Positions 57,906 through 59,331 of a stretch of DNA of 64,000 bases are shown here, one piece after another. The notes beneath the pieces were generated by a model. It ran no database searches. It worked only from the letters and a program-made list of their open reading frames with translations, and was not told where the DNA came from. A program made the position numbers and the translations under genes. The DNA comes from Prochlorococcus sp. AG-418-C09. Its GTDB lineage: Bacteria; Cyanobacteriota; Cyanobacteriia; PCC-6307; Cyanobiaceae. Numbering within the stretch: the stretch's first letter is position 1; every line of letters starts with the position of its first letter. The stretch spans positions 221,039 through 285,038 of the forward strand of contig QCLS01000001.1 of assembly GCA_003214355.1 (NCBI GenBank), written 5' to 3'.

Positions 57906-57976
57906 GGCGGCATGGCCAAGCGGTAAGGCAGAGGATTGCAAATCCTTTATCCCCAGTTCGAATCTGGGTGCCGCCT
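57906..57976 (+). tRNA. tRNA-Cys(GCA)
   Basis: GGCGGCATGGCCAAGCGGTAAGGCAGAGGA-TT GCA AA-TCCTT...CCCAGTTCGAATCTGGGTGCCGCCT. Confidence 0.97.
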
Positions 57977-57977
57977 T
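57955..57977 (+). repeat. att core copy 1 (tRNA-Cys T-arm and acceptor 3' strand)
   Basis: AGTTCGAATCTGGGTGCCGCCTT, identical at 59183..59205. Confidence 0.95.
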
Positions 57978-58064
57978 CTTTATATTAGTGACAATATTCG
58001 CTGTAAACCGTTCCAAGAAAAGGAGTTTTGAGTAACGGTTCGAAGATTTCAAGGAGTTATTAAT

Positions 58065-58097
58065 GGTAGGAAAGTGGTAGGAAAGTGGTAGGAAAGT
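58065..58097 (+). repeat. Three perfect tandem copies of GGTAGGAAAGT
   Basis: Units at 58065, 58076 and 58087. Confidence 0.95.
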
Positions 58098-58389
58098 CAA
58101 GACAAAACTTTCTTTAACCCACACGAAACTATTATCGCAAAATAAAAACCAAGGAACAAATTATTAAATAACTTTAAATTAATTGCAATTCCGACTCGTT
58201 TAATTGAAAATCTTACTTTTATAAAAAGCACATTATTGAAAGGTAAAGCACGCATTTAGATAATTTAAATTAAATATCTCAACGACTTAGTGAATAATAA
58301 TATTTCTAGATCTTGCCCTTAATAACAATAGTTAAATTTCTTTGTTCTTTAGTACCTCTTTTATAAAATAAAAAGAATACCTACATAGT

Positions 58390-58830
58390 GAGAATTTACA
58401 GATTTTGCTTAAAGTTTTAATTATTTTTCTTTTATGTACCCCCTTTTTGTTCCTAATAAAAAAGGAGTTCGATGGAGTATCTAAAAAGAGTAAAAAAATT
58501 ACTTATATATCAATCGGAATAACTTCTTTCATGTTTGTACTGTATAGATTGGCGCTGATTTATGAGAATTTACAGATACTGTTTAATATTTTATTAAGTG
58601 TTCTTTTATTTAGCGCATGTTTCTTCTTATTAAAAAAAGTTTTCGATGGATTATCTAAAAAGAATAAAAAAATAACTTATATATCAATCGGAATAATTTC
58701 TTACATGTTTGTACTGTATAGATTGGCGCTGATTTATGAAAATTTACAGATGTTGTTTACATTATTTTTAGTAATTCTTGTAGTTAGCGCATTTTTCTTC
58801 TTATTAAGAAAAGTTCTGGATGAATTTTCT
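58390..58830 (+). repeat. 174-bp (58-codon) tandem repeat, about 2.5 units, inside the cargo gene
   Basis: GAGAATTTACAGAT at 58390 and 58564, GAAAATTTACAGAT at 58738; TTCGATGGA at 58468 and 58642. Confidence 0.93.
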
Positions 58831-59001
58831 AAATGTCCGCGATGCGGTACACCTAACAGTTCTGAACTTGTAGACCAACAATGGCATGGAACATTTGAAA
58901 TGGGTACACAACGTGAAACAAGAAATATTTATAAAAATACCTATAGATGTTCAAAGTGTGGACATCAGTATTGGAAAACAGAACGAAGTTGGTTTAACTA
59001 A
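58405..59001 (+). CDS. Cargo membrane protein with 58-aa tandem repeats and a C-terminal zinc ribbon
   Basis: Hydrophobic helices alternate with Lys-rich loops; CPRC...CSKC; TTG start; the only long ORF in the cassette. Confidence 0.7.
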   Translation: MLKVLIIFLLCTPFLFLIKKEFDGVSKKSKKITYISIGITSFMFVLYRLALIYENLQILFNILLSVLLFSACFFLLKKVFDGLSKKNKKITYISIGIISYMFVLYRLALIYENLQMLFTLFLVILVVSAFFFLLRKVLDEFSKCPRCGTPNSSELVDQQWHGTFEMGTQRETRNIYKNTYRCSKCGHQYWKTERSWFN

Positions 59002-59104
59002 AAAAATTATTTAATTAATCAAATAAATTGATTCTAAAAGTAATTTAATTTCCTACCTTAAAAATAAATAAATAGATTGAAAGTAAATATTCCACACTTT
59101 TAAT

Positions 59105-59126
59105 GGTAGGAAAGTGGTAGGAAAGT
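59105..59126 (+). repeat. Two perfect tandem copies of GGTAGGAAAGT
   Basis: 59100..59126 is identical to 58060..58086 (27 bp). Confidence 0.95.
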
Positions 59127-59182
59127 TTAGATTTTGATCTCAAAAACTGCAGTTATAGATTGATTTTTAGAATACAAAACCT

Positions 59183-59205
59183 AGTTCGAATCTGGGTGCC
59201 GCCTT
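59183..59205 (+). repeat. att core copy 2 (duplicated tRNA-Cys 3' fragment)
   Basis: Exact 23-bp match to 57955..57977; 25/26 when extended to 59180. Confidence 0.95.
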
Positions 59206-59297
59206 TTTCAAATTAGTAAATAATTTCGCTGTAAAGCGTTCCAAAAAAAGGATTTTATTATAGCGATTCTTAATACTCAAGATGTTCAGTAATGGGC

Positions 59298-59331
59298 GGT
59301 AGGTTATCGGTAAGTTGACTGATAAGTTACC
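59298..59331 (+). repeat. Variant three-unit array (GGTAGGTTATC, GGTAAGTTGAC, GATAAGTTACC)
   Basis: About 11-bp period, shared G-R-T-A-R-G-T-T core; at nearly the same distance from att copy 2 as the first array is from att copy 1. Confidence 0.6.

Follow-up and report, generated by a model that had tools for sequence, protein, structure and literature searches.

A short repeat, the 11-mer GGTAGGAAAGT, stands at both ends of a 1.2-kb cassette that lies beside a tRNA-Cys gene of Prochlorococcus sp. AG-418-C09 (assembly GCA_003214355.1). The window, i.e., the whole stretch of DNA that was analysed, comprises 64,000 nucleotides of contig QCLS01000001.1 (positions 221,039 to 285,038) and comes from a genome of high-light type. 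Comparison with related sequences suggests, with a probability that we put at about 0.77, that these units are the arm-type sites of an attachment (att) site belonging to integrative elements of 6-7 kb, which encode a divergent tyrosine integrase of ~470 amino acids (aa). What was observed directly is the position, number, orientation and exclusivity of the units, their covariation with the integrase, their conservation, the attP junction and the recombinase fold of the protein. Heterobivalent tyrosine integrases that use arm-type sites are well known from phage lambda, where the attP of Int carries the sites P1, P2 and P′1–P′3, and from HP1, L5 and the Tn916-type elements.

The cassette is bounded by the intact tRNA-Cys (attL) on one side and by a partial tRNA-Cys copy (attR) on the other, and the coordinates of its parts are collected in Table 1. 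A preliminary description of this DNA had recorded three perfect units on the left and two on the right, lying 88 nt from att copy 1 and 57 nt from att copy 2, respectively, all in the same orientation and with a 27-nt block in common. The counts and spacings proved exact, all five direct units are on the plus strand, and the block TTAATGGTAGGAAAGTGGTAGGAAAGT is identical at 58060-58086 and 59100-59126. A sixth unit, inverted and placed ahead of the right array, had been overlooked, and with it the cassette has three sites on each arm, the P′ inverted site being absent. Tandem Repeats Finder (TRF) returned both direct arrays at 100% identity with a period of 11. When up to one mismatch was allowed, nine matches to GGTAGGAAAGT were counted in the window against 0.94 expected, a number reached by none of 100 shuffles, and in the 1.6-Mb genome the double unit occurs at this single locus. 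The 23-nt att repeat is exact; it consists of the 3′ end of the tRNA-Cys including the first base past the tRNA. What had been missed is its continuation at 76% identity for ~82 nt past the tRNA end (57952-58058 against 59180-59286).

The same architecture was found in other genomes of the genus. A scan for the double unit through one genome per prokaryote species located it in six further Prochlorococcus genomes (seven including that of the window), always at tRNA-Cys cores. The left array begins ~108 nt past the core start (L012, L013, L022, L026, L028 and L039), and in all relatives the right array begins 80-82 nt ahead of the second, partial core and is itself preceded at 53-56 nt by an inverted unit. 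The cargo enclosed by the arms is unrelated across genomes (AG-335-I21, for instance, has a secreted repeat protein there, while AH-287-E16 has three other genes), and at some loci two cassettes follow each other in tandem. The cultured strain MIT 9302 has a cassette nearly identical to that of the window with two left units, and since the difference between the left arrays amounts to exactly one unit of 11 nt, the third left unit of the window is, on this comparison, a lineage-specific gain of one unit. Between these two cassettes identity is 95-100% in the non-coding arms, ~50% in the N-terminal part of the cargo open reading frame (ORF) and ~70% in the host flanks, a supporting observation for the view that the arms may be under stronger constraint than the cargo gene; within the arms, the P′ spacer varies more than the arrays. 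The near-identical cassette occupies two different contexts, because past att copy 2 MIT 9302 continues into plain flank and the window into an older P′ arm, which is an indirect hint that the cassette may be able to move.

The suggestion that the 11-mer could be used as a barcode to find its integrase was fruitful, and led to AG-363-B04 and to metagenomic contigs. AG-363-B04 (L039) contains a complete element of 6.6 kb with both arrays and both inverted units, which encodes a small serine recombinase, several small ORFs and, beside the P arm, an inward-facing ORF of 473 aa (L039, 6942-8363) whose TTG start lies 3 nt from the inverted unit. Among the integrase-bearing relatives this inverted unit lies directly against the start of the integrase or overlaps it (GGTAGGAAAGTcaaTTG in L039, GGTAGGAAATG in L097). 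Scanning metagenomes for the double unit gave 71 contigs, 23 of which hold a tRNA-Cys core or the integrase; a few more are of tRNA-Phe or tRNA-Pro types. The order integrase, P units, partial tRNA core, P′ units, as in an attP, was seen in L097, L100, L118, L135 and L153-L158, and the full arrangement with both inverted units, a partial tRNA-Cys core and the 88-nt spacer in L097, L100, L118 and L135. The earlier expectation that excision would join the arms around the core into an attP is matched by these contigs; its proposed number of arm sites, two on one side and three on the other, is not, since the canonical layout has one inverted and two direct units per arm. The attP reads: inverted unit, ~45 nt, two direct units, ~57 nt, core, ~88 nt, two direct units, ~36 nt, inverted unit. 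In each complete element (6.2-6.9 kb) the 8-mer GTAGGAAA is present exactly six times, in the att region only, where ~0.2 would be expected by chance, and the six-site layout, -137(-), -80(+), -69(+), core, +109(+), +120(+), +167(-), is constant among them. In picocyanobacterial DNA the arrays keep to att cores, at fixed offsets in seven of seven Prochlorococcus genomes that have them and at tRNA-Cys or tRNA-Phe cores in a further set of marine metagenome contigs; conversely, the tRNA-Cys elements that bear an integrase, in AG-363-B04 and in many metagenomic contigs, have the arrays. The viral contigs of IMG/VR contained neither the array nor the integrase family.

Four contigs of 6.3-6.6 kb overlap head to tail at their termini (L107, 99 nt, exact; L143, 167 nt, 96%; L147, 106 nt, 96%; L146, 124 nt, 94%), from which the elements appear to exist as circles of ~6 kb. 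Such circles, together with repeats that are short and helically phased at 11 bp, would fit an explanation of the units as the iterons of an origin from which the circular form replicates. This is highly improbable: each cluster has two adjacent copies only, the clusters are symmetric about the recombination core and have inverted partners, no replication initiator was found common to all elements with the word, and the units are kept in chromosomal cassettes, which need no origin. The nearness of the inverted unit to the integrase start codon, and of a tandem pair to the integrase start in other cyanobacteria (see below), could also mean that the units are mainly operators, through which the integrase regulates its own gene by occluding the promoter or start codon, and that those in cassettes are relics. 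This too we consider improbable, if slightly less so, as the distance to the integrase start is 50-300 nt for four of the six sites, with those of the P′ arm beyond the core, and integrase-less cassettes keep their arms at 95-100% identity while the coding part diverges; regulation of this kind would in any case be compatible with a function as arm sites, since in known integrase systems arm sites can double as regulators of int.

Within the metagenomic set, L107, L117 and L143 form a sub-group that has the same word, an integrase with 55% identity and a core derived from tRNA-Phe(GAA); the tRNA-Cys and tRNA-Phe cores differ at two of the first 17 positions. Many of the 6-kb elements also share a module of three genes, encoding a 136-aa protein that is ribbon-helix-helix (RHH)-like, a protein of 420 aa whose DruA-like match (phrog_19197) is weak, and the small serine recombinase, which was noted in L107 (MDTA01123704.1), L146, L147, L156, L158 and L041. 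The AG-363-B04 element is without the 136-aa RHH-like and 420-aa DruA-like genes.

The 473-aa protein gave no match in Pfam, nothing useful from PHROGs and none in a sequence-profile search of the PDB, and its homologues in marine metagenomes, of which there are more than 200, are all unannotated. Its identification as an integrase rests on fold comparison, since the sequence searches gave nothing useful. An AlphaFold (AF2) model was obtained with a predicted local distance difference test (pLDDT) score of 87.7, and the top 50 fold matches in the PDB were all tyrosine recombinases, among them Cre, lambda Int, Tn1549 Int, XerA and XerH (best E = 6e-5). The residues R290, K318, R396, H397 and Y434 are invariant across an alignment of 35 homologues. 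Judged by the model, the protein is a divergent tyrosine integrase. Ahead of the core-binding and catalytic domains there is a confidently predicted extra module of ~75 aa at the N-terminus, formed by beta strands followed by a long helix, and by analogy with arm-binding integrases we infer that this module binds the 11-mer units.

If the units are read by the integrase, the word and the protein should change together. The metagenomic GGTAGGAAA loci had been found by means of the word itself, so that loci selected by protein were needed for this test; the unbiased set was picked by integrase homology alone and drew on nine genomes of the genus and six metagenomic homologues (44-87% identity). 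In 12 of 13 such loci an adjacent pair of 11-mers, matching each other at 9-11 of 11 positions, was found 79-112 nt before the core, and in nine of the 13 a matching inverted 8-mer lay 133-168 nt ahead of the core; windows drawn at random from these loci almost never score as high. At least eight different words occupy the same positions among the protein-selected loci, and the lineage words recorded are GGATGGTAAGT, GGACGGTAAGC, GGGCGGTAAGT, GGTAGGACAGT, GGTAGGTGAGT, GGAAGGTGAGT, GGTAGGGGAGC, GGAATGTTAGT and CAGTATGGAAC. Across integrase lineages with only 31-39% identity to integrase P0001, position, period, copy number and orientation are kept, while the word changes jointly at every site of an element. 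By maximum likelihood, the GGTAGGAAA integrases group in a single clade, in which those targeting tRNA-Cys and tRNA-Phe stand together, and the GG(A/G)(T/C)GGTAA group forms another; the GGTAGGACA integrase is placed as sister of the GGTAGGAAA clade, a position that is uncertain because of its very long branch (2.64). The integrase phylogeny follows the arm word. The strands of the N-terminal module also differ between the integrase groups. With this, it is very unlikely, and the least probable of the explanations weighed here, that the units arose neutrally, by slippage or duplication, and have no function. The third unit of the window is indeed a simple one-unit expansion relative to MIT 9302, as slippage would leave, whereas a geometry conserved among such distant integrases under concerted change of the word, and arms far better conserved than cargo or flanks, would not be expected of neutral repeats.

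The word has an echo outside the genus. The genome scan gave 20 matches in genomes other than Prochlorococcus, and ten of these belong to other cyanobacteria (L010, L016, L018, L019, L025, L027 and L031-L034), i.e., Xenococcaceae, Leptolyngbya, Phormidesmis, Chroococcus, Chroococcopsis and others. In all ten, GGTAGGAAA(T/A)T is present twice in tandem ~122 nt past an intact tRNA-Pro(CGG), and in all ten the pair abuts the start of a conventional integrase of ~385 aa, in which PF12167 (Arm DNA-binding) and PF00589 were recognised along with a SAM-like domain. The 8-kb loci showed no second copy of the tRNA-Pro. This co-occurrence supports the word as an integrase-associated site. When the picocyanobacterial integrase was compared with these PF12167-bearing integrases profile against profile, the probability was 7% and the catalytic part alone aligned. 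The echo prompts the question whether the modules that read the arms have a common origin.

Several observations weigh against this account. A Pfam arm-binding domain was not detected in the integrase, and the N-terminal module, folded alone (pLDDT 72.8), had no significant match (best E 0.6) when searched against the PDB with Foldseek, an AP2 DNA-binding repeat appearing at E ~3. The head-to-tail overlaps could stem from tandem copies rather than from circles. The covariation alone is compatible with another element-encoded DNA-binding protein, because the elements are inherited as a whole, and the window cassette itself may be recombinationally dead, as its P′ inverted site is missing and it has a third direct unit. 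The most credible of the alternatives, which we nonetheless regard as unlikely, is that the units bind such a protein, an excisionase (Xis) or directionality factor or an RHH regulator, instead of the N-terminal domain of the integrase. Tandem direct repeats beside a core are typical of Xis-type and RHH-type binders. The 136-aa RHH-like gene directly follows the integrase in many elements, more distant elements encode an AlpA-like protein, and an N-terminal module with no significant fold match would also suit this explanation. However, a search of the AG-363-B04 element, where the six GGTAGGAAA sites are complete, gave no match to the RHH-like gene (E 1e-4), and the gene is present in L041, whose word differs. 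The integrase is the sole gene that always adjoins the sites, and its phylogeny follows the word; the sites are on both arms, far from the core, with one overlapping the integrase start; and the tRNA-Pro(CGG) integrases with the same word do have a recognised arm-binding domain. The reading of the units as arm-type sites, which the preliminary description had put forward, is supported by the comparison through the fixed offsets, the attP form and the covariation.

Outside the picocyanobacteria the double unit (a 20-mer) is not exclusive to such sites: ~40 of the 71 metagenome contigs and ten matches in the genome collection are unrelated DNA, mostly of high GC content and non-cyanobacterial. 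Among the unrelated matches, two Lactiplantibacillus genomes (L009 and L024) have an inverted copy ~20 nt upstream of the double unit, and in a metagenome-assembled genome of the Opitutales (L017) the double unit is part of a long tandem array of GGTAGGGAACT type. These arrays look unrelated to the cyanobacterial sites.

A mechanism can be proposed by analogy with arm-binding tyrosine integrases, from general knowledge of these systems. The integrase would bind the tRNA-derived core through its C-terminal part, i.e., the core-binding and catalytic domains, and the arm units through the ~75-aa N-terminal module, thereby bridging arms and core into an intasome. The 11-bp spacing would place paired units on one face of the helix, and the inverted outer units might let the arms fold back onto the core. 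Strand exchange within the 3′ end of the tRNA would restore an intact tRNA gene, and integration would split the six sites such that attL receives the P′ sites and attR the P sites. The unit that overlaps the integrase start probably makes the integrase gene self-regulating as well.

Compared with lambda-type systems, the resemblance lies in short, repeated, non-core words on both arms, set off from the crossover region by tens of bp up to more than 100 bp, some of them adjacent in tandem and one helical turn apart, in integration at a tRNA 3′ end that regenerates the tRNA, and in a tyrosine-recombinase fold with an extra N-terminal domain. The differences are that the layout is symmetric here (inverted, two direct, core, two direct, inverted), that the integrase is without detectable sequence similarity to the Pfam integrase and arm-binding models, with an N-terminal module unmatched to lambda Int or to an AP2-like fold, and that one of the sites reaches into the start codon of the integrase; sites for IHF or Xis were not identified.

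The integrase family and the element appear to be already known. Using annotation by protein language model, Flamholz et al. (PMC10187409) described a novel picocyanobacterial tyrosine integrase family, "cluster158946", which adjoins tRNA-Phe or tRNA-Cys, is often near a small serine recombinase, is distinct from the tycheposon integrases and has phylogenetic groups that correlate with the tRNA. The P0001 integrase family appears to be this cluster; it was matched by description only, and every stated property agrees. Both have Prochlorococcus and Synechococcus hosts, escape standard annotation, have atypical domains with the catalytic residues kept, and are found at tRNA-Cys and tRNA-Phe variable islands with a serine recombinase nearby. 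The reference accession of the published family did not turn up among the homologue-cluster members examined, and, unlike the tRNA-correlated groups of that study, the tRNA-Phe group found here nests inside the tRNA-Cys GGTAGGAAA clade. Flamholz et al. make no mention of att sites, arm repeats, circular forms or integrase-less cassettes (PMC10187409), and what is added here is the architecture of the att sites, the diversification of the arm words and the cassettes with one gene. The uncharacterised family thereby gains its DNA side, an attP with six arm sites and a tRNA-Cys or tRNA-Phe core, along with apparent circular forms.

Tycheposons are likewise small elements at tRNA genes that seed variable islands, with a tyrosine recombinase facing inward from one end and, frequently, a small serine recombinase as companion, and they share the stacked integrations and partial-tRNA scars seen here. 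They target seven tRNA or tmRNA genes (Pro, Ser, Ala, Thr, Arg, Met and tmRNA), Cys and Phe not being among them, and arm-type sites are not discussed in the preprint that describes them (Hackl et al., bioRxiv 10.1101/2020.12.28.424599). The elements described here differ from tycheposons in their targets, which are tRNA-Cys and tRNA-Phe, and the Cys and Phe integrases are set outside the tycheposon clade in PMC10187409. A primase or helicase module was not seen in the elements of the relatives, and the window cassette is also without integrase and serine recombinase. An identity as integron gene cassette was rejected as well, the cassette being bounded by tRNA-derived cores and arm repeats and not by the imperfect palindromes of attC, and the integrase family differing from IntI.

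The single cargo ORF of the window cassette is built on a 174-nt repeat, present in 2.6 copies of 84-86% identity and coding for a membrane segment, and its C-terminal end forms a CxxC...CxxC zinc ribbon. The counterpart in MIT 9302 has 121 aa and shares only the zinc-ribbon end, which makes the cargo gene a mosaic. The cassette contains no recombinase gene, and searches of its own genome with the P0001 protein, the A1 and A2 profiles and PF12167 returned no cognate integrase; the three PF00589 matches in this genome are all of other families. The cassette is non-autonomous, given a genome without cognate integrase, and its excision or movement would at best be possible with a GGTAGGAAA-type integrase supplied in trans. 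Five of the canonical sites are kept, together with the one extra direct unit. Most likely the cassette is a stripped passenger that has lost the integrase and every other gene of the element and has kept the docking sites, and we infer that it may still be mobilisable. Att-flanked, integrase-less derivatives of integrative elements are known from streptococci as CIMEs, or cis-mobilisable elements. As in CIMEs, the cargo of the window cassette lies between functional-looking attL and attR of one integrase type, without a recombinase gene, and is stacked beside the remnants of an older element; unlike CIMEs, the cassette is much smaller, has a single gene and is short of one of the six sites. 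Some chromosomal cassettes retain the first 25-50 codons of the integrase beside the inverted unit (e.g., L101, 1257-1331), and members of the P0050 cluster with 44-50 aa are found on contigs of 77 kb and 519 kb. Such stubs suggest that integrase-less cassettes arise by internal deletion.

Of 30 high-quality genomes from the genus, about half show plain flank past the tRNA-Cys, i.e., an empty site, and the remaining half or so have arrays of one of the lineage words at the same offset past it. In six of the 30 a second core follows within 1.5 kb and delimits a mini-cassette too small for the integrase, and every mini-cassette examined has the identical word on both arms. Mini-cassettes, at six of 30 good genomes, are commoner than the integrases, at nine of 285. 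A tentative extension, to which we give distinctly less than even odds, is that the tRNA-Cys and tRNA-Phe sites act as cassette-collecting platforms, where one-gene, integrase-less cassettes with complete arm sets would be taken up, stacked and exchanged in trans by the 6-kb circular elements, the 11-mer arm codes serving as orthogonal addresses for each integrase lineage. It is supported by the greater frequency of mini-cassettes and by the stronger constraint on arms than on genes. Prochlorococcus is the most abundant phototroph on Earth, and its gene exchange is only partly understood; the many island genes that are found here in single-gene cassettes with recombination signals suggest a route of exchange gene by gene. 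The pairs of integrase and 11-mer, of which there are at least eight with the same geometry, should be useful for following the evolution of arm recognition, and could supply orthogonal recombination tools for cyanobacteria.

Table 1. Features of the tRNA-Cys locus and its cassette (positions within the window).
Feature	Position	Strand	Remarks
tRNA-Cys(GCA), intact; 3′ part is the integration target	57906-57976	+	ARAGORN
att copy 1, attL core, AGTTCGAATCTGGGTGCCGCCTT	57955-57977	+	exact 23-nt repeat of 59183-59205
Core-proximal P′ spacer, ~88 nt	57978-58064	+	resembles the DNA past att copy 2 and the native tRNA-Cys downstream flank elsewhere
P′ arm array, three direct GGTAGGAAAGT units (two in relatives)	58065-58097 (58065, 58076, 58087)	+	exact match, TRF
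Sole cargo ORF, 198 aa	58405-59001	+	repeated membrane segments, C-terminal zinc ribbon; not a recombination gene
P arm inverted unit, GGTAGGAAATT	59047-59057	-	55 nt upstream of the right array; position kept in all relatives
P arm array, two direct GGTAGGAAAGT units	59105-59126 (59105, 59116)	+	exact match, TRF
CAGTTATAG motif, ~35 nt before the core	59150-59158	+	read by eye from aligned P arms
att copy 2, attR core, partial tRNA-Cys 3′ end	59183-59205	+	exact 23-nt repeat
Remnant P′ arm of an older, different element	59206-59331	+	spacer homologous to 57978-58064, then three decayed units

The three decayed units of the older remnant, at 59294-59327, read GGGCGGTAGGT, TATCGGTAAGT and TGACTGATAAGT and are of the GGGCGGTAAGT type. 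Intact double arrays of GGGCGGTAAGT adjoin an integrase in L042 and occur also in L052/L077. A third att copy, which would mark the right end of the older element, was searched for downstream of 59300 and not found. The ~88 nt past the tRNA-Cys end are homologous among the P′ arms of elements, the older remnants and the plain flanks of empty sites (57978-58064 against 59206-59290; L050-L079), so that the elements seem to carry a copy of the region downstream of the host tRNA, beyond the tRNA 3′ end itself.

In the P arms a consensus A(G/A)TTATA(G/A) is kept ~35-45 nt before the core next to differing 11-mers (L012, L013, L022 and L039-L045). An accessory protein or a host bending protein might bind there, or the integrase might make a core-proximal contact. 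Elsewhere in the same genome, the last 22 nt of the tRNA-Phe(GAA) gene are copied exactly 142 nt downstream (G000:C2:87100-87320; L151, 1448-1665), with a single unit-like GTGGTATGTAAGT between the tRNA end and the copy, which looks like a tiny scar left in this genome by the sister tRNA-Phe integration system.

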